Part shown: piece by piece, positions 9,132-37,662 of the stretch | Layout of the letters: each line of letters begins with the position of its first letter | Numbering within the stretch: the stretch's first letter is position 1 | Assembly: GCA_041653515.1 (NCBI GenBank) | Contig: JBAZFG010000001.1 | Location: forward strand, 74,332 to 138,331 | From: Candidatus Nanoarchaeia archaeon | GTDB taxonomy: Archaea; Nanobdellota; Nanobdellia; WJKC01 | Length of the DNA stretch: 64,000 nucleotides | Direction: 5' to 3' | Notes under the pieces: generated by a model | The model's database searches: none | The model's input: the letters and a program-made list of their open reading frames with translations, nothing else | Told to the model about the DNA's origin: nothing | Translations under genes and position numbers: made by a program

Positions 9132-10076
9132 ATGATTAACATAATAATATTAATCCTATCACTTAGTGTCTTAATGTTCTCAAGCGGCAAGGCTGTTAAG
9201 TACGTGATGAAATTATCAAGAATTTTTGGCATTAGCGAAATGTCAGCTGGTTTCATTATTTTATCAGTGGCCACTTCACTGCCTGAATTAGTTGTTTCAA
9301 TTAATGCTGCGATGATTGGTGAGGGCGCGCTCGCTGTAGGCAACGTTCTTGGTTCAAATATTGCTAATATTACTATCATCCTTGGTTTAGCAGTGATTAT
9401 TAGTCGTAAGCGAAAAATTGTTTTCACCAAAAAAGTGTTTGATAACTTGATTGAATTCCTTTTTATTTCATCATTAATCCCATTGTTTATCTTGCAGACA
9501 GGCCATGTTAGTCTTGTGCTTGGCATAGTGCTTATCTCACTTTTCATTTTCTTCAGCTTTAAGACCCCTACAAAAGTTAAAGGCATTGAGGGCATTCATG
9601 TCGTGTTTAAGAAAGATAAGATATTAGTTATAATAAAATTCGTGATTGCCGTAATAATAGTAATTATTTCATCTAACTTTGTGGTTGATAGTAGTGTTAA
9701 TATTGCTGCGTTATTTTCAATCCCACCATCAATTATTGGCGCAACAGTTATCGCTCTGGGCACGTCACTGCCTGAATTAACCACTACTGTTCAGGCATTT
9801 AGGAAAAGATTATATAACGTTGGTTTAGGCAATGTTATTGGCAGTTGTATTACTAACCTGACTCTGATTCTTGGCATTACTTCAATATTTAATAATGTTC
9901 AATTAAACATTGTGTCTTTTACTTCACTTACTTTGTTTGCGATAATGGCTTCAATGATTACTTGGTATTTTGTCAGCACTGGCCGTCGCTTGGATAAACG
10001 CGAAGCATTCTTACTAATTGGTCTTTACACAATATTTATATTGCAAGAGCTTGGTTTCTCTTTGTTTGTATTATGA
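9132..10076 (+). CDS. CaCA-family cation/Ca2+ exchanger (YrbG-like) membrane protein
   Basis: Two alpha-repeats (GNVLGSNIANITIILG; GTSLPELTTTV) and ~10 TM helices. Confidence 0.7.
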   Translation: MINIIILILSLSVLMFSSGKAVKYVMKLSRIFGISEMSAGFIILSVATSLPELVVSINAAMIGEGALAVGNVLGSNIANITIILGLAVIISRKRKIVFTKKVFDNLIEFLFISSLIPLFILQTGHVSLVLGIVLISLFIFFSFKTPTKVKGIEGIHVVFKKDKILVIIKFVIAVIIVIISSNFVVDSSVNIAALFSIPPSIIGATVIALGTSLPELTTTVQAFRKRLYNVGLGNVIGSCITNLTLILGITSIFNNVQLNIVSFTSLTLFAIMASMITWYFVSTGRRLDKREAFLLIGLYTIFILQELGFSLFVL

Positions 10077-10930
10077 AAATAGGTCGAGTTAAACTTAATA
10101 GTAATTTATTGTTGGCGCCAATGCTTGGTTTCACAAATAGTGCTTTTAGGCACTTATGTCATGATTACGGTGCTGGCTTAGTTACTACTCCGTTAATCAA
10201 TGAGAACGCTGTTCTGAATAACCCTTTAATTATTGACGCGGTTCCGGGCGAAGCGGTTCAATTAATTGGCAGTGACCCAATTAAATTATCAAGAGCAGCT
10301 GTTATTGCCCAGCCTCATTGTGATTTAATTGACCTTAATTTTGGTTGCCCTGCTACTCGCGAAGCCGTTTGTGGGGTTGGTGCTATCCTCTTGAAGAAAC
10401 CTGCTTTGATTAAAAAATTAGTTAGCAGTGTTGTCAAGTCAGTTGATTGCCCAGTGACTGCTAAGATTCGCCTTGGCTTTGATAAGATTAACGTGATTAA
10501 AGTCGCTAAAGCAATTGAGTTTGCTGGCGCGTCAGCCATCACTGTTCACGCCCGGCTTGCTAGTCAGGATTATTCAGTGCCTGCTGACTGGCCTTGGATT
10601 AAGCGAGTTAAGGAATCAATCAGTATCCCTGTTATTGGCAACGGCGACGTTAAAAATCAGGCTGACGCTAATCAGATGATTAGTGAAACTAACTGTGATG
10701 CTGTGATGATTGGCCGGGCTGCTATTGGTAACCCGTTCATCTTTAAAGGGGTTGAGCCATCAGTCAAGGATCGTCGCATTGCTTTTAAGAAATTAGTCAG
10801 TTATGATTGTCCAATGCAGGACTTGAAATTACAAGCACTAAATTTTGTTAAAGGACTGCCCGGTGCTGCGCGAATAAAACAATCAATAATGAAAGCAAGT
10901 AATGAAAAAGAATTAATCAATTTCTTATAA
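10073..10930 (+). CDS. dus: tRNA-dihydrouridine synthase (Dus family)
   Basis: LAPMLGFTNSAFRHL… DLNFGCP … TIM-barrel Dus motifs. Confidence 0.8.
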   Translation: MKIGRVKLNSNLLLAPMLGFTNSAFRHLCHDYGAGLVTTPLINENAVLNNPLIIDAVPGEAVQLIGSDPIKLSRAAVIAQPHCDLIDLNFGCPATREAVCGVGAILLKKPALIKKLVSSVVKSVDCPVTAKIRLGFDKINVIKVAKAIEFAGASAITVHARLASQDYSVPADWPWIKRVKESISIPVIGNGDVKNQADANQMISETNCDAVMIGRAAIGNPFIFKGVEPSVKDRRIAFKKLVSYDCPMQDLKLQALNFVKGLPGAARIKQSIMKASNEKELINFL

Positions 10931-10931
10931 C

Positions 10932-11051
10932 CCCAATTATCCTTGGGCTTGTGTTATCATCCCAAGGCGGGGGACAGATTCCCCCTCCTCTAGGCTACTC
11001 CGCCCCTTTCTGCTTAATTATCCCAATTATCCTTGGGCTCGTGTTATCATC
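10932..11051 (+). repeat. 30-bp direct repeat (10932-10961 / 11022-11051, 1 mismatch) flanking a 60-bp GC-rich hairpin insert that contains the gattccccctc core
   Basis: cccaattatccttgggctYgtgttatcatc occurs twice. The insert carries a GGGGGA-cagat-TCCCCC hairpin. DR1 begins 1 nt after the dus stop; DR2 plus the insert encode the C-terminus of the minus-strand gene. Confidence 0.7.
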
Positions 11052-11888
11052 ATATATTACTGATGGCCCAATCAATACTATTGTTTTTTCAAGCATTACT
11101 TTATCTTTTAATTCTGCTTGCCTTGATAGTAAACCGTTGATGACCATGAATTTTTTTAACTCGCCTTTGAAGAATCTTGATTTAATTATTTCACCACTCA
11201 ATTCTTTTGTTTCTTTTAGCTCGTTACTTAAGATTGAGCCTCGCTCTAAGTCCTTCACATCGCAGTTCTTGAGCGAGACCCCAACCCGCGCGGGCCAATT
11301 AATCTCTTTATAATCAACGTCCATTGATTGCATGCTGTTTAATTGGGCTGGCCTGCCACCAGGCAATAAAACAAATTTATCCTTAACCTTGATTGTCCCG
11401 CCTTTAGTGAAACCAAGCGCTACTGTGCCAACATTCTTGATGTTAAAGAAGTGGTCAATGATGATTAATGGTTCATTTCCATACACTGGCTCAATCATCA
11501 GTAAATCATCTTTTAATTGTTTGATGTCATCATTATTGTTTATTATTCTAAAGTTATAATCAAGGCCAAAACTCTTGACTTGCTCAACTAAGTGTTGCTT
11601 GTCTAGCGGCACAATGAAACAGCCTTTCTTGCCCAGCAAGTCCAATAGTATTATTATCTCGCCAAAGAATTTGTCAACAGCGCTTAACTCAACCACGACG
11701 TAGTCAGTCATGTTAACTGCCTGAATCAGGGTCTTGATTTTTTCCGGAAAACCAATCGGCCTAACAATTGTTAGCACTGAATCAGTTTTCTTATAATGAA
11801 GAAATTCAAGGTCACTAACTGTTGCTTTATTGCCAAGCATTTTAGCTGTCTCGTCACTACCAATAAAACAAGCGCAAACATTTTTCAT
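10995..11888 (-). CDS. EF-Tu/aIF2-gamma-fold protein with degenerate (non-canonical) GTP-binding motifs
   Basis: Domain order is collinear with translational GTPases (G-like domain, beta-barrel domain II GTVALGFTKGGTIKV…, domain III). However, the P-loop GHVDHGKT is replaced by GSDETAKM and no NKxD is present. Confidence 0.5.
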   Translation of the reverse strand: MKNVCACFIGSDETAKMLGNKATVSDLEFLHYKKTDSVLTIVRPIGFPEKIKTLIQAVNMTDYVVVELSAVDKFFGEIIILLDLLGKKGCFIVPLDKQHLVEQVKSFGLDYNFRIINNNDDIKQLKDDLLMIEPVYGNEPLIIIDHFFNIKNVGTVALGFTKGGTIKVKDKFVLLPGGRPAQLNSMQSMDVDYKEINWPARVGVSLKNCDVKDLERGSILSNELKETKELSGEIIKSRFFKGELKKFMVINGLLSRQAELKDKVMLEKTIVLIGPSVIYDDNTSPRIIGIIKQKGAE

Positions 11889-17765: not shown

Positions 17766-17790
17766 AAATAAATCAATAAAATCACTTTTT

Positions 17791-17886
17791 AAAAGCATTA
17801 TTAATACTAAATTTAAAAGCATTATTAATACTAAATTTAAAAGCATTATTAATACTAAATTTAAAAGCATTATTAATACTAAAAAA
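17791..17886. repeat. 24-bp tandem repeat, ~3.75 copies (aaaagcattattaatactaaattt), immediately upstream of the P-loop gene
   Basis: Perfect head-to-tail copies at 17791, 17815 and 17839, with a partial copy at 17863. Confidence 0.9.
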
Positions 17887-25086: not shown

Positions 25087-25158
25087 TAAGAGATTTTATT
25101 ATTATAACATTATAAAGATCATTGTAATTCAGTTCTCATTTTATCCCTGAACGCGCGA

Positions 25159-25340
25159 ATCATTAATGGGTGTATTAGTGGGTTCTTATCATACTCGACC
25201 GCAGGGAGAAGTATCCCCCTTCAGTCTTGAGAAACCCTGATTCCCCCTCTACGTTTATTTTGTCTTAATGGCGTTACTGATTAATTCCTTGAATTTTCTT
25301 ATCATTAGTGGGTGGATTAATGGGTTCTTGTCGTAATTGA
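25159..25340 (+). repeat. ~40-bp imperfect direct repeat (25159-25198 / 25301-25340, ~85% identity) flanking a GC-rich core (25199-25254) that contains ctgattccccctc
   Basis: The copy inside the gene encodes …YDKNPLIHPLMI of the radical-SAM/ArcS protein. The distal copy encodes the same peptide followed by an alternative tail, RAFRDKMRTELQ*. Confidence 0.65.
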
Positions 25341-26514
25341 TTTTATTCATTAATTGCTCGTCGCATAAATCTACTAATTTTATCCCCAGTTCCTTGCACG
25401 CGTTCTTCAAGCACTGACCTGACTCACTCTTTGGTTTATAATAAGAGAATACTTGCTCGTACTTATGAGCTGTTAAGTAATCCTTGACCCGTTGAGTGTT
25501 AATCCTAACATACTCTTTCATTACTTCTGGCGTCTCGTTCCGCTCATCCCAGTCGTAAGCGTTGAATGGGTACTTGTCAGCGAACTCAATTGGGATAACC
25601 CCTGGGTTGCTGATAACAATAATATGAGTATTCTTATACCAATCAAAACCAGTAATAGCGCGCCTGATTGAAACATGCGTCCGACTATTATAATAAGGCT
25701 TCTTCTTACTGCAAGGCAAGAACAAAGCAATAGTTTTGTTCAACGGCTTATTATACAAACGAACCAAGTAATCCTGCCAAACGTTAAAGTGAGGGTGAGT
25801 CACGAACTCAACCCCAACGCCATTTAAATCAGCCTTCTTCTCTAACGGGAATTTAGGCACGAACGCATAATTATTCGGCTCTAACTGAACGCTCTCATAC
25901 TTTTTTGTTCGCTTAAAAAACTCTTGCTCACTAATAGGCTTCCACTCACCTGCCACCCATAAATCAAACAAGCCTGACCTGGCGTGAGGAAAAGTATTAA
26001 TCAACACTATTTCATTACTATACTCGCGCGCTAAGGCAACGCTTTTATCCAATAACCCATCATAATCAAACGGGTGATTAATCAATAAGTATGACTTAAC
26101 TTTGAAGCCATGAGCGTGAACTCGCTCACAAGCCCTCTTATAAGCCTCAACCGTGATGCCCTTGTTTAATTTCTTCAATACTTCATTATCACCAGCCTCA
26201 AGCCCAATCGCCACTACTAATTTGACACCTTTGAACAAAGAGAGTTTCTCGTCAGTCACGTACTCTGGTCTTGACTCAATATACAAGACTCGACCCTGCA
26301 TTACTTTAGCCACATGAGTCTGGAATTTAATTGGGAATTGACAGTCATCCAATAATGAGCCACTGCAGAATAATTTAACATCACCCTCACCACTCTCCCT
26401 ATCAAACCTGTCAATTAACTCATTAGCACTAATATTAACATCATCCTTACCCCAACCACAAAACAAACACTTACCCCAAGAGCACTTGCCGGCGTTTAAC
26501 ACAATCTCTTTCAT
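25255..26514 (-). CDS. radical-SAM domain protein fused to an ArcS-type catalytic domain (PC-X3-KPY-X2-S-X2-H); putative archaeosine (G+) synthesis enzyme
   Basis: N-terminal Cys cluster CSWGKCLFC (Cx4Cx2C) and C-terminal LPCSKKKPYYNSRTH matching the ArcS signature. Divergent from arcTGT. Start placed at Met 26514 (MKEIVLNAGKC) to avoid overlap with tgtA. Confidence 0.6.
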   Translation of the reverse strand: MKEIVLNAGKCSWGKCLFCGWGKDDVNISANELIDRFDRESGEGDVKLFCSGSLLDDCQFPIKFQTHVAKVMQGRVLYIESRPEYVTDEKLSLFKGVKLVVAIGLEAGDNEVLKKLNKGITVEAYKRACERVHAHGFKVKSYLLINHPFDYDGLLDKSVALAREYSNEIVLINTFPHARSGLFDLWVAGEWKPISEQEFFKRTKKYESVQLEPNNYAFVPKFPLEKKADLNGVGVEFVTHPHFNVWQDYLVRLYNKPLNKTIALFLPCSKKKPYYNSRTHVSIRRAITGFDWYKNTHIIVISNPGVIPIEFADKYPFNAYDWDERNETPEVMKEYVRINTQRVKDYLTAHKYEQVFSYYKPKSESGQCLKNACKELGIKLVDLCDEQLMNKINYDKNPLIHPLMIRKFKELISNAIKTK

Positions 26515-26566
26515 AAAAAAATGGAATCCGTAACACTTTTTAAATACCTTGCGTATCACTTTGTTC

Positions 26567-28216
26567 ATGTCATTTGAAATCAAGGACCACGACGGCCTCG
26601 GCCGATTAGGCGTACTGACTGTTAACAATAAGTCAATCACTACACCTAACATTGCGGTAGTCATTAACCCTAATGACTTAACCATCCCCCCTGAAGAAAT
26701 GATGCGTGACTTCGGGGTTGATTTAATTATCACTAACGCCTACATTATTAAAAACTCAAAAAAAGCCAAGGACATTGAAGCTAAAGGATTGCACGAATAC
26801 CTTAATTTCCCCGGCATTATTTACACTGACTCAGGCACTTACCAGATGTTTAGCAAGGGCGGTGCTGCCATCACTAACGAGGAAACACTCGCTTACCAAA
26901 CTAAAATTGGGAGTGATATCCACACGCCACTTGATTTATTCACACTGCCAGATGATGACAGGGCAACCGCAGTCAGCAAACTTACTGAAACAATCAAGCG
27001 GATTAAAGCCATAAGAACAACTAATTTCTCAGCCCCAATACAAGGCGGCTCGTTCATGGACCTGCGAGCTAAAGCCTGCAAAGAACTAGCCAAGGTTAAA
27101 CCAACTGTTTACCCAATTGGCGGTATCGTACCATTAATGATTAGCTATGATTTTAAACGATTAATTGAAGTAATCCTTGAGTGCAAAAAACACTTACCCT
27201 TAAACACACCTGTTCACGCTTTCGGCGCTGGTCACCCGCTTATCTTTGCCTTACTCGCTTACGCAGGAGTTGACTTATTTGACAGCGCTAGTTACGCGTT
27301 ATACGCCAAGGAAGCTAAGTACATCACTGAGACTGGCACAATGAAAGTGGATGAGTTAGTCTCACTGCCTTGTAATTGCCCTATTTGCGCTAAGCATAAG
27401 CCAAGCGATTTGCGCGACGTTGGCTTACTAGCCCGACATAACTTGCACGCCTTAATGAGAGAAGTAAGGTTAGTTAGACAAGCCATTCAGCAAGACCGAT
27501 TATTTGAATTAGTAATGTCAAGAGCGATGAGCCACCCAAACGTTTACTTTGCGTTTAAACGATTGCTTGAGTATAAAGAATTAATCAGCGAGCATAACCC
27601 TATTCGTAAGAGAAACGCTTTATTCTGGACTGGAGCTTTGAGTAGTGAGCGACCTGAGATTAATTATGCTAATAACCAACTTAAATTACTTAAACTAAAA
27701 AAAGCACCCAAACCATTAAAACTAGTTTACCCTTTTGGTCAGAACGTTGGCTGGAGTATTGATTATTCAGTAAAAAATTATGATGACTTAGCAACCCTTC
27801 GATTAATGGCTGATTACCAATTCGGTGCTGGCGCTGGACTAAAATTAATCCCTGACAATGTCACCATTATTAAAAGCCGTAACCAGCGATTACATGAAGT
27901 ATTACTTAAAAATGAATTATTATTCATCGTCCGCGCCCGTGATGGTTACTTTGCACTACATAAAGCTGGCGCGAAACGATTAAAACAATACTTAAAAAAA
28001 GTGGTCGCGCCAGATGAATATAAAGAGTTTTACCAAAAAGGCGGCGACGTGTTCGCCAAACACGTGCTTAAAGCAAACAACATTAAGCCGCGCGAGGAAG
28101 TCGGTGTTTATTGCGGCAAAGAATTAGTCGGGGTCGGCGAGGCAACACTATCAAGCCGTGAGATGATTGTTTTTGATAAAGGCGTGGCTGTTAAGACACG
28201 TGAAGGAATAAAATAA
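26567..28216 (+). CDS. tgtA: archaeosine tRNA-guanine transglycosylase (arcTGT) with C-terminal PUA domain
   Basis: MSFEIKDHDGLGRLG N-terminus, Zn site CNCPICAKH, ~550 aa. Confidence 0.9.
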   Translation: MSFEIKDHDGLGRLGVLTVNNKSITTPNIAVVINPNDLTIPPEEMMRDFGVDLIITNAYIIKNSKKAKDIEAKGLHEYLNFPGIIYTDSGTYQMFSKGGAAITNEETLAYQTKIGSDIHTPLDLFTLPDDDRATAVSKLTETIKRIKAIRTTNFSAPIQGGSFMDLRAKACKELAKVKPTVYPIGGIVPLMISYDFKRLIEVILECKKHLPLNTPVHAFGAGHPLIFALLAYAGVDLFDSASYALYAKEAKYITETGTMKVDELVSLPCNCPICAKHKPSDLRDVGLLARHNLHALMREVRLVRQAIQQDRLFELVMSRAMSHPNVYFAFKRLLEYKELISEHNPIRKRNALFWTGALSSERPEINYANNQLKLLKLKKAPKPLKLVYPFGQNVGWSIDYSVKNYDDLATLRLMADYQFGAGAGLKLIPDNVTIIKSRNQRLHEVLLKNELLFIVRARDGYFALHKAGAKRLKQYLKKVVAPDEYKEFYQKGGDVFAKHVLKANNIKPREEVGVYCGKELVGVGEATLSSREMIVFDKGVAVKTREGIK

Positions 28217-28698: not shown

Positions 28699-28769
28699 GC
28701 GTTCGTAGTCTAGTGGTAGGATCTCAGCCTTCCAAGCTGATGACCTGGGTTCGAATCCCAGCGAGCGCA
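28699..28769 (+). tRNA. tRNA-Gly (anticodon UCC)
   Basis: Cloverleaf read by eye: acceptor GCGTTCG/CGAGCGC, anticodon loop CUUCCAA, T-arm GGGTTCGAATCCC; no encoded CCA. Confidence 0.85.
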
Positions 28770-28850
28770 TCAAAGATGCGAACTGATGGGCTCTGTGCGA
28801 GACTGAGCTGAAAGCGAAGAGCAAAGCGCACAGCAATCCCAGCAGTCGCA
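28754..28850 (+). repeat. partial duplication of the tRNA-Gly 3' end (aatcccagcgagcgca / aatcccagcagtcgca) flanking a 65-bp GC-rich hairpin insert
   Basis: 13-14 of 16 nt identical. The insert (28770-28834) has a CTGTGCG…CGCACAG inverted repeat and is unusually GC-rich for this genome. Confidence 0.45.
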
Positions 28851-33713: not shown

Positions 33714-33893
33714 ATTATTCTTTTTTTAGTTTAGTAAACTATTTAAAACTATCTTTGCGTTCAATTGTTCACCACTGTGTCACCCCAATAATACAGTGAT
33801 GGGAAGCCATTCGTGGCTTCCCACTGTTTTATATTTATTTACCACTATTAGTGGTGCTAATGTTTATAAAGTGATTATTTACTAATTCATTTA

Positions 33894-36358: not shown

Positions 36359-36489
36359 CTTAAGACACTTAAGTTAATAAGTAGTATAAATATAATTTCA
36401 AGGCGACCGAAGCCGCCCTGAAACAGCGTTTGAGGGATAACAACACACTTTTGACAAGGAGCGTTGTTACAAGAATAGTTCTGTTTTAA

Positions 36490-37057: not shown

Positions 37058-37297
37058 ATGAATGTTGGTTTTAAAATCGCTGGCGTTATCTGTTTAGTCC
37101 TAGGTGTTATTGGCGCCTTAGGTGTTTTAGGAACAACTAACCCATTGAGCATTATTAGTGACCCATTATTTAACCTAACTAAATTATTCCTCACTGACAG
37201 CGGCTCATTCTTCCTATGGGTCTTTATCATCGTGCTTGGCTTAACGCTCGTTGGCCCAAGTAAAGGTTTTATTAAAGGCATGGCTACGCGAAAGTAA
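37058..37297 (+). CDS. small membrane protein (79 aa)
   Basis: 2 TM helices. The stop codon lies inside DR1 of the downstream element. Confidence 0.4.
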   Translation: MNVGFKIAGVICLVLGVIGALGVLGTTNPLSIISDPLFNLTKLFLTDSGSFFLWVFIIVLGLTLVGPSKGFIKGMATRK

Positions 37298-37369
37298 GCT
37301 TTATTAAAACAAAGGGGCTGTGCCCCTCTTGACTCCCCCTTTCTTTGAAAGTAAGCTTTATTAAAACAA
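37290..37369 (+). repeat. perfect 23-bp direct repeat (37290-37312 / 37347-37369) flanking a 34-bp GC-rich hairpin insert containing cttgactccccct
   Basis: gaaagtaagctttattaaaacaa occurs twice and includes the stop codon of the upstream gene. The insert has an AGGGGC-tgt-GCCCCT hairpin. Confidence 0.75.
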
Positions 37370-37389: not shown

Positions 37390-37662
37390 ATGGGGCTTGA
37401 TGATTGGGAAGATATTATTCCAGGGATTGTTATTGTAATATCCATTTTAGCTTTAATTGGTGGGATAGCTAATTTCGTGCCAGCCATTAAGTCAGTGACT
37501 TGGCTTTATACTATCACTAATTTTTTCAACAATATCTTCATGTATGTAGCAGCTGTAATAACACCTTACATACCACTTCAAGCAATCTATATGGCAATAA
37601 TTATTGAGATATTAATGATAATATTTAGCATCATCTTCATACTAAAAGTAACAGTCTTATAG
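37390..37662 (+). CDS. small membrane protein (90 aa)
   Basis: 3 TM helices. Confidence 0.4.
   Translation: MGLDDWEDIIPGIVIVISILALIGGIANFVPAIKSVTWLYTITNFFNNIFMYVAAVITPYIPLQAIYMAIIIEILMIIFSIIFILKVTVL

Follow-up and report, generated by a model that had tools for sequence, protein, structure and literature searches.

The 55-nt G+C-rich segment between the convergent genes dus and EF-Tu/SelB-like in the window—the whole 64,000-nucleotide stretch of Nanoarchaeia DNA analysed here—probably belongs to a small family of non-coding, G+C-rich stem-loops of ~30-60 nt that occur as inserts, apparently a type of miniature insertion element not described before. The window contains three such inserts, at 10962-11016 (I1), 25194-25254 (I3) and 37313-37346 (I2), and our comparisons show that the three have a common architecture and belong together. 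They also show that the sites of two copies, I2 and I3, are empty in the nearest relative.

Results

I1 came to attention through a first-pass annotation, which described a repeat pair bracketing a GC-rich segment and gave a translation for each version of the gene end. Both observations hold up: the direct repeats DR1 (10927-10961) and DR2 (11017-11051) are 35 nt long and 32/35 identical, start 90 nt apart and enclose the 55-nt segment 10962-11016, and the translations are as reported. Close-range direct-repeat families of at least 20 nt number just five across the 64 kb. The G+C of the segment reaches ~57% vs 36% for the genome, and it holds the sole GGGGG-N(4-12)-CCCCC hairpin of the window, for which the chance expectation is 0.02. 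An independent Logan contig (L007) is identical in sequence to the window at I1. The features of the three loci are the following.

10073..10930, plus strand: dus, tRNA dihydrouridine synthase (PF01207, E 6e-68), the convergent neighbour; stop at 10928-10930
10917..10961, minus strand: orphan gene-end copy (DR1 10927-10961 plus tail), reading DDNTSPRIIGVIRN and a stop
10962..10992, minus strand: I1 unit B, TAGAGGAGGGGGAATCTGTCCCCCGCCTTGG, with hairpin GAGG-A-GGGGGA/UCCCCC-G-CCUU, core 10969-10985
10993..11016, minus strand: I1 unit A, CAGAAAGGGGCGGAGTAGCC (10993-11012), plus junction TAAG; no counterpart in contig L001 of the closest relative
11017..11051, minus strand: DR2, the copy of the duplicated end that lies within the gene, with codons DDNTSPRIIGII (direct-repeat comparison and translation)
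10995..11888, minus strand: gene for an EF-Tu/SelB domain-2-like protein, 297 aa (weak PF03144; TIGR00475 selB, E 5e-13, residues 139-238)
25119..25335, minus strand: sister insert I3, element 25194-25254, found by a more permissive repeat scan
37290..37369, minus strand: sister insert I2, a 34-nt element (37313-37346) within a perfect 23-nt repeat

Read on the minus strand, DR2 plus the I1 insert give DDNTSPRIIGIIKQKGAE and a stop, which is the 3' end of ORF 10995..11888. Since the 90-nt spacing equals 30 x 3, DR1 and DR2 share a reading frame. The DR1 frame had been said to end 1 nt from the dus stop; its actual stop is the TGA at 10917-10919, 14 nt inside dus. Deleting 10962-11051 in silico leaves an intact 293-aa ORF that ends ...IIGVIRN and overlaps dus by 14 nt. 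Six of the 13 convergent ORF pairs in the window overlap, by 29-47 nt; therefore, gene ends in this Nanoarchaeia genome are very tightly packed, and the 14-nt overlap of the restored ORF is normal here.

How much of the protein is affected could be specified. Unit A encodes the tail QKGAE and a stop TAG (10995-11012), and this element TAG is the stop of the EF-Tu-like ORF in the window, the stop in L001 being the TAG that opens unit B. The idea that a TAG stop is a rare, element-specific feature was rejected, as 14 of 84 long ORFs end in TAG. The proposal that the insertion had replaced the last codons is supported for the five final codons and the stop, which lie in the insert, but not for most of the supposed surrogate end, which is DR2, a near-identical target copy and not foreign sequence. 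The I1 element rewrites the last few residues of the C terminus only (RN-stop becomes KQKGAE-stop, and V becomes I), and the conserved IIG(I/V)I core is retained in the EF-Tu-like protein. In 12 homologues of this protein the core is likewise conserved, with C termini such as ...PRIIGIIK, IGIIHQ, IGIIDQ, LGIIKK, LGLLKKDL, IGIIKNPKPLIE and similar. None of the 12 ends KQKGAE, so the universal ...IIKQKGAE ending that the first-pass annotation would have taken as a sign of an ancient fixed feature is not what the orthologues carry. The orthologue comparison that had been suggested as a guide to the ancestral end shows orthologues with ...IIGIIK followed by 0-7 variable residues and does not indicate IIGVIRN as ancestral, IIGIIK-QKGAE and IIGVIRN both falling within this range of tails. 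In more distant orthologues the gene ends right after IIGII-x and has other downstream neighbours, sometimes with a 23-nt overlap, and none has a GC hairpin downstream. The reconstructed pre-insertion proteins—that is, empty alleles within the species—are absent from a 15-billion-protein collection, and no record was found of the two flanking proteins.

The second insert, I2, lies between two small membrane-protein ORFs, and its repeat copies (37290-37312 and 37347-37369; close-range direct-repeat scan) are 23/23 identical. The 34-nt GC-rich element between them contains the hairpin GGGGC-TGT-GCCCC. The stop codon of ORF 37058..37297(+) falls in the first repeat copy, and the second places, by inspection, a TATA-like box ~25 nt before the ATG of ORF 37390..37662(+). 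Oriented by its motif, I2 is antisense to both neighbours. In run SRR18595300, Logan contig L104 has as its first base window position 37313, where the I2 element opens; polymorphism between alleles or interrupted coverage over the hairpin could be behind this. Contigs of the same run span I1 and I3 intact.

The third insert, I3, lies at the end of a radical-SAM/DUF5591 archaeosine-synthase-like gene, ~25255..26514(-) by coordinates taken from an alignment offset. The mechanical ORF of this gene (25255-26733, 492 aa) opens at an upstream GTG, and the real start according to the orthologue alignment is a Met 73 codons downstream (entry P0117, 419 aa). The I3 repeat (25135-25187 vs 25277-25329) is 53 nt long and 74% identical, with copies 142 nt apart and, by reading the sequence, no identical run longer than 9 nt; the length of the flanking repeat is ~53-59 nt, or up to ~80 nt when counted as a duplication. 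The in-gene copy plus tail (c2, 25255-25335, minus strand) reads YDKNPLIHPLMIRKFKELISNAIKTK and a stop, and the orphan copy (c1, 25119-25193, minus strand) reads YDKNPLIHPLMIRAFRDKMRTELQ and a stop, with the native C-terminal 24 codons intact 61 nt downstream of the gene. The putative surrogate cassette comprises the end of an archaeosine-synthase-like gene, ...MIRKFKELISNAIKTK and a stop, and then TAGAGGGGGAATC. Over the whole of I3, an independently assembled Logan contig (L106) matches the window at 100% identity.

Which of the two I3 copies is native can be judged from the closest relative, whose orthologue (contig L105) ends ...NYDKNPLIHPLMIRALRDKMRIELQ and a stop without any insert. The orphan differs from this gene end at just 5 of 72 nt and matches the C terminus ...RALRDKMRIELQ, so it represents the native end. 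In blastn, L105 1254-1289 aligns to both window copies, and the flanking identity is 81% and 83%. Over 13 shared codons the in-gene and orphan copies have 8 nt differences, all synonymous, and at 5 of these 8 sites the orphan agrees with L105 and the in-gene copy deviates. Divergence of this extent in a purely synonymous pattern could not have come about by neutral decay of an in-place duplicate; together with the element, the in-gene copy looks like a diverged homologous gene-end cassette. Its tail resembles those of more distant orthologues, e.g., RSFKEKISKELK. A comparison with 102 orthologues returned no close match that would identify a donor lineage for the tail, and no lower-identity tract of the kind expected of imported DNA was seen upstream of the in-gene copy. 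These alignments clearly establish the orphan at 25.2 kb as the native C terminus and the in-gene copy as its diverged surrogate. The behaviour of elements that carry a surrogate 3' gene end, which the first-pass annotation had attributed to I1, is therefore recognisable at this sister, where the displaced copy is the native C terminus.

Several lines of evidence tie the three inserts together. On the minus strand, all three have the motif RRAGGGGGARTC together with a G-run/C-run hairpin, and each sits between long direct repeats of a gene end (35 nt at I1, 23 nt at I2 and ~59 nt at I3). A 12-nt pattern derived from the three inserts themselves, AGAGGGGGAATC, has exactly three matches with at most two mismatches on both strands of the 64 kb, all on the minus strand and one per insert. 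The strict motif [AG][AG]AGGGGGA[AG]TC, sought across 590 kb of fetched loci, is confined to these inserts, the element in L001 and one further match in a Thermoplasmata locus (L040). I1 and I2 are mutually the best local match in the window (p ~0.02 vs composition-preserving shuffles), the I1 score of 24 being tied with one coding-region match. As RNA, the minus strand of each insert gives the more stable fold, the minus vs plus energies of the three being -23.3/-19.4, -23.3/-13.1 and -16.5/-13.1 kcal/mol. The hairpins of I1 and I3 have a common layout—a lower stem of 4-5 bp, an A.G mismatch and a G-rich upper stem of 6-7 bp—with lower-stem sequences that differ between the two, and a consensus fold over four sequences retains six pairs. 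I1 and I3 each hold two G-run units (A and B), L001 unit B only. The orphan copies of I1 and I3 both open with (G/T)ATGATAA directly after the hairpin, which may point to a preferred target or to joining through microhomology. Known copies amount to three plus one orthologue, with similarity among them at the motif level.

Searches for more members returned little. The window holds no further copy of the I1 insert at up to three mismatches, no ORF within or next to the inserts I1, I2 and I3, and no integrase or other machinery within or beside the 55 nt of I1. For the I1 hairpin, one metagenome scan and a search of viral contigs gave chance matches only, in unrelated and mostly high-GC contigs; the scan did not return the known L001-type contigs, so the metagenome collection is incomplete for this Nanoarchaeia lineage. 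A scan of species-representative genomes with a protein profile recovered only ~30%-identical homologues from Thermoplasmata, Micrarchaeota and similar groups, too distant for intergenic sequence to be compared.

Two other GC-rich intergenic hairpins were considered as family members and rejected, as they have neither the motif nor flanking repeats. The first (33788-33832), upstream of the 5S rRNA, is strong and perfect, TGGGAAGCCA-TTCG-TGGCTTCCCA, extended by CAGTG/CACTG and then TTTTAT. The second (36390-36420) is a stem-loop, TTTCAAGGCG-ACCGAAGC-CGCCCTGAAA, before a TATA-like box; the short strings CAAGGCG and CGGTCG are common to it, I1 and I3, and it has no G5 motif. The window also contains, at 17788-17883, four perfect tandem copies of the 24-nt AT-rich sequence TTTAAAAGCATTATTAATACTAAA plus one degenerate copy, at the end of overlapping ORFs.

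Searches for RNA genes gave equally sparse results. Rfam 15 at the gathering threshold and ARAGORN found only the 5S rRNA and one tRNA in the window, relaxed Rfam searches of I1 and I3 gave sub-threshold matches or none, and neither ARAGORN nor Rfam reported a split tRNA. A tRNA-like reading of the I1 minus strand, suggested by acceptor-like GGGGCGG/CCGCCUU, was dropped because there is no D or anticodon stem. The I1 hairpin was not recognised in a scan with a terminator consensus; on the plus strand, the hairpins are followed by tracts rich in pyrimidine/T. At 28754-28843, 3' of tRNA-Gly (28699-28769), a 9-nt segment of the tRNA 3' end, AATCCCAGC, recurs 81 nt downstream, and its copies bracket a 72-nt stretch of 56% G+C that might represent either a small RNA gene or what is left of an att-like site.

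The closest relative species (85% protein identity) is represented at I1 by six contigs from six samples (L001-L006) and at the I2 and I3 sites by contigs of the same species and samples (L101-L103 and L105). At I2 the site is empty: in L101-L103 the orthologous 90-aa gene is preceded by just one copy of the 23-mer (21/23 identical), and the GC-rich segment is missing. A degenerate second 23-mer, which would be an excision footprint, is not significant there (p ~0.08-0.09). Precise loss via the 23-nt repeat could in principle produce such a site. At I3 the site is likewise empty, as described above.

I1 is different, since the relative carries its hairpin. In L001, dus is convergent to the EF-Tu-like gene, as in the window, and the intergenic order is gene stop TAG, then AAGGGGGAATCTGTCCCCCTCCTTGGGATGA, then dus stop; read from dus, the dus stop is followed by the TCATCCCAAGG-hairpin and the stop of the EF-Tu-like gene, which ends IIGIIK, with almost no DR1. 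Compared with L001, the window has an extra 26 nt (most of DR1) and an extra 20-22 nt (CAGAAAGGGGCGGAGTAGCC, encoding QKGAE and a stop). Both junctions, ...ATAATTAAR/element and element ...CCTTGG/GATGAT, are the same in the two lineages, so the element looks orthologous and its insertion should predate their split. The presence of the hairpin between both genes in the closest relative means that I1 did not arise recently in the lineage of the window alone, and DR1 may have been added afterwards. DR1 and DR2 have 1 difference in their first 30 nt, third codon positions being ~57% identical between the lineages, and a simple old target-site duplication fails to explain this closeness. We see three possibilities: DR1 was created or re-created recently, as a 26-nt patch with GATGA microhomology; DR1 and DR2 were homogenised; or the I1 cassette moved between lineages, as seemingly happened at I3.

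These same data have to be weighed against a reading in which nothing was inserted when the repeat arose. The hairpin would be an old conserved intergenic structure, e.g., a 3'-end or terminator-like stem-loop, IIGIIK would be the original gene end, and DR1 would be a later, lineage-specific 26-nt templated patch, copied from the 3' end of the gene across the hairpin by template switching seeded on GATGA(T). The presence in L001 of a hairpin between both stops without DR1 fits this well, as do the 30/31 identity of the 31-nt hairpin block against 72-77% in the coding flanks, the position of the dus stop at the same aligned codon in both lineages, and the IIGIIK-like ends of orthologues. DR1 moreover groups with DR2 (1 of 30 nt differing) and not with the L001 gene end (5 differences), and it has the AGG and AGC codon states of DR2 that are mostly missing from outgroups. 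However, the other motif-bearing GC hairpins also lie within long gene-end repeats and are empty in this same relative, and the patch would require two precisely placed template switches. L001 also keeps both ends of the long repeat—GATGAT beside the hairpin, and the 8-nt repeat ATTAAATA that flanks its element—as an internal deletion of DR1 would leave, and it shows other deletions nearby (unit A, 20-22 nt, and ~116 aa of dus in frame). A purely host-serving terminator role is disfavoured because I2 is antisense to its neighbours. We regard an old conserved hairpin with a later patch as unlikely, if deserving of serious attention, and continue to favour a family of inserts, under which L001 may be a deletion derivative without the unit A of other family members, with both long-repeat ends kept and dus shortened. 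The in-frame loss in L001 dus (1865-2330) spans ~116 codons, window residues ~64-179, and leaves a 148-aa ORF; the same sequence is present in contigs from several samples, and dus is probably decaying in the L001 lineage.

Discussion

The picture that best accommodates these observations starts from the shared make-up of the inserts, each of which consists, on the minus strand, of one or two purine-rich G-run units (signature RRAGGGGGARUC) and then a G-run/C-run hairpin. Such inserts would have landed at gene 3' ends in a very compact AT-rich Nanoarchaeia genome, with duplication of the landing site, over 23 to ~80 nt, on both sides of each. The upstream copy would remain fused to the gene body, read into the element and end at an element-borne stop, which at I1 would add QKGAE and TAG after ...IIGIIK. 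The downstream copy would be orphaned—at I1 this would be DR1, reading ...IIGVIRN and a stop and overlapping dus—and both neighbours would have been kept intact through the duplication. By analogy with its two sisters, 10962-11051 would be the element plus one target copy.

How the elements arrive is more conjectural. They were presumably copied in without an enzyme of their own, most likely, although we say so with low confidence, by template switching during replication or repair, or by repair of widely staggered breaks. Either route would leave duplications that are long and variable in length, with microhomology at the junctions, e.g., (G/T)ATGATAA, and selection would then retain only those insertions whose duplication regenerates both gene ends. 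We favour this copy-in route combined with selection because it would explain why the repeats are long and variable, why the junctions show microhomology, why units occur in tandem and why the inserts lack an enzyme. Once in place, a cassette of gene end plus element may have been exchanged between related lineages, which would explain the diverged I3. The family reading is weakened at that locus, where this second process—import of a diverged cassette—must be assumed.

The nearest analogues of the inserts appear to be the mobile GC clusters and hairpin repeats of AT-rich mitochondrial genomes. In yeast mitochondria, mobile G+C-rich clusters have flanking repeats of 2-3 nt (AG or ACT), and co-conversion of their flanks has been suggested (PMC4478555); similar hairpin-forming repeats are reported from sponge and fungal mitochondria (PMC2800124). 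The resemblance extends to ~20-50 nt GC-rich, hairpin-forming, non-coding inserts in an AT-rich compact genome, to presence/absence between relatives (three copies being seen here), to merged or tandem units such as A+B of I1 and I3, and to the lack of a transposase of their own. The differences, by published description, are that the duplications here are 23, 35 and ~59-80 nt long and cover functional gene ends, and that the host is a DPANN archaeon and not an organelle.

Integrative elements at att sites in tRNA and protein genes target 3' ends and carry a surrogate end. The inserts resemble them in that repeats bracket the insert, a replacement 3' end keeps the gene intact and the displaced native end lies on the far side, most clearly at I3. 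This raises the question of whether the repeats are attL/attR cores of larger elements whose interiors were later deleted, leaving 34-89 nt, in which case the likeness of the I3 in-gene copy to a diverged homologous gene end would be that expected of an attP-borne surrogate. However, the inserts are only 34-61 nt long and carry neither an integrase nor cargo, the space between the repeats being free of ORFs, and the surrogates at I1 and I2 are near-identical or identical target copies. Three targets would need three att specificities, yet there is one common motif, and I2 is placed in an intergenic stop/promoter overlap. As to an identical att core, the I2 repeats are 23/23 and the I1 repeats 32/35 identical, and those of I3 have no identical run above 9 nt and hence no long identical core. 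An origin as att remnants is accordingly improbable.

Other known systems fit less well than the mitochondrial clusters at specific points. MITEs, REP/BIME sequences and Rickettsia palindromic elements, the last of which insert into coding regions with the frame preserved, are, like these inserts, miniature non-autonomous palindromic repeats. Unlike MITEs and REP/BIME, the inserts have no terminal inverted repeats—I1 begins CAGAAAGGGG... and ends ...CGCCTTGG, its palindrome being internal—no short target-site duplication of fixed length (35, 23 and 53-59 nt in the window, 8 nt in L001), and a low copy number in 64 kb. No partner transposase or RAYT was noticed among the ORFs of the 64 kb. Template switching of the FoSTeS/MMBIR type produces templated insertions with flanking duplication, normally as one-off events. 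It shares with our inserts a local duplication of variable length around a short segment copied from elsewhere, and junction microhomology (GATGA at I1, (G/T)ATGATAA in I1 and I3); unlike its products, the inserted pieces are interrelated here, so a preferred template or an element family must be assumed. Ectopic spacer integration of the CRISPR type was rejected, as the repeats vary in length (23, 35 and 53-59 nt) and duplicate local gene ends. For classical transposition, as for integrase-mediated and CRISPR-type integration, at least one defining feature is missing. Location at gene 3' ends is itself a reported feature of REPs (PMC2817692).

The intactness of the orphan copies invites a further explanation, namely that the inserts are tolerated or used by recoding, through a bulge-helix-bulge intron or translational bypass between matching codons, so that the downstream copy is still expressed. 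Translational bypass elements (T4 gene 60 and the mitochondrial byps) are GC-rich hairpins of 27-55 nt in AT-rich coding sequence with matching flanks and are thought to be mobile, and ribosome-bypassed GC-rich hairpin inserts are known from both yeast mitochondria and phage T4. The I1 orphan is indeed intact and in frame (90 = 30 x 3), and the I3 orphan, likewise intact, has only synonymous differences from the in-gene copy. However, the inserts lie after or at a stop codon between long repeats; the I3 copies, 142 nt apart, are out of frame, and I2 is intergenic and opposite in orientation to the neighbouring genes. The geometry of a bulge-helix-bulge intron, two 3-nt bulges on either side of a 4-bp helix at the boundaries, was not seen in minimum-free-energy folds, and the recent arrival of a diverged cassette would give the synonymous pattern without recoding. 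We thus consider recoding very improbable. An assembly artefact, e.g., a chimeric join of strain variants, can practically be dismissed: although the source is a metagenome-assembled genome and Logan contig L104 has its start precisely where the I2 element opens, independent Logan contigs cross I1 and I3 at 100% identity and the related hairpin occurs in six contigs from six samples of another species.

Returning to the family of inserts, a bolder proposition, which we advance only tentatively, is that Nanoarchaeia (DPANN) harbour a new class of enzyme-less G-run/C-run hairpins of 30-60 nt. These would enter gene ends by template switching with long target duplication, rewrite C termini, separate overlapping genes or promoters, and be exchanged as cassettes between lineages. 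In archaea they might then correspond to the GC clusters of mitochondria, with an insertion signature of a new kind.

Should the family prove real, it would mean that a minimal archaeal genome with overlapping genes can still accept insertions, because the insert comes with, or is selected with, a duplicate of the gene end, so that the neighbours survive and the protein gains a tail. The inserts would then be a source of C-terminal variation, a source of pseudo-duplicated gene ends that annotation pipelines may misread, and a marker of recombination between DPANN lineages, and they would parallel, by convergence, the mobile GC clusters found in AT-rich genomes of mitochondria. Their long variable duplications provide a signature that is searchable in other streamlined genomes.
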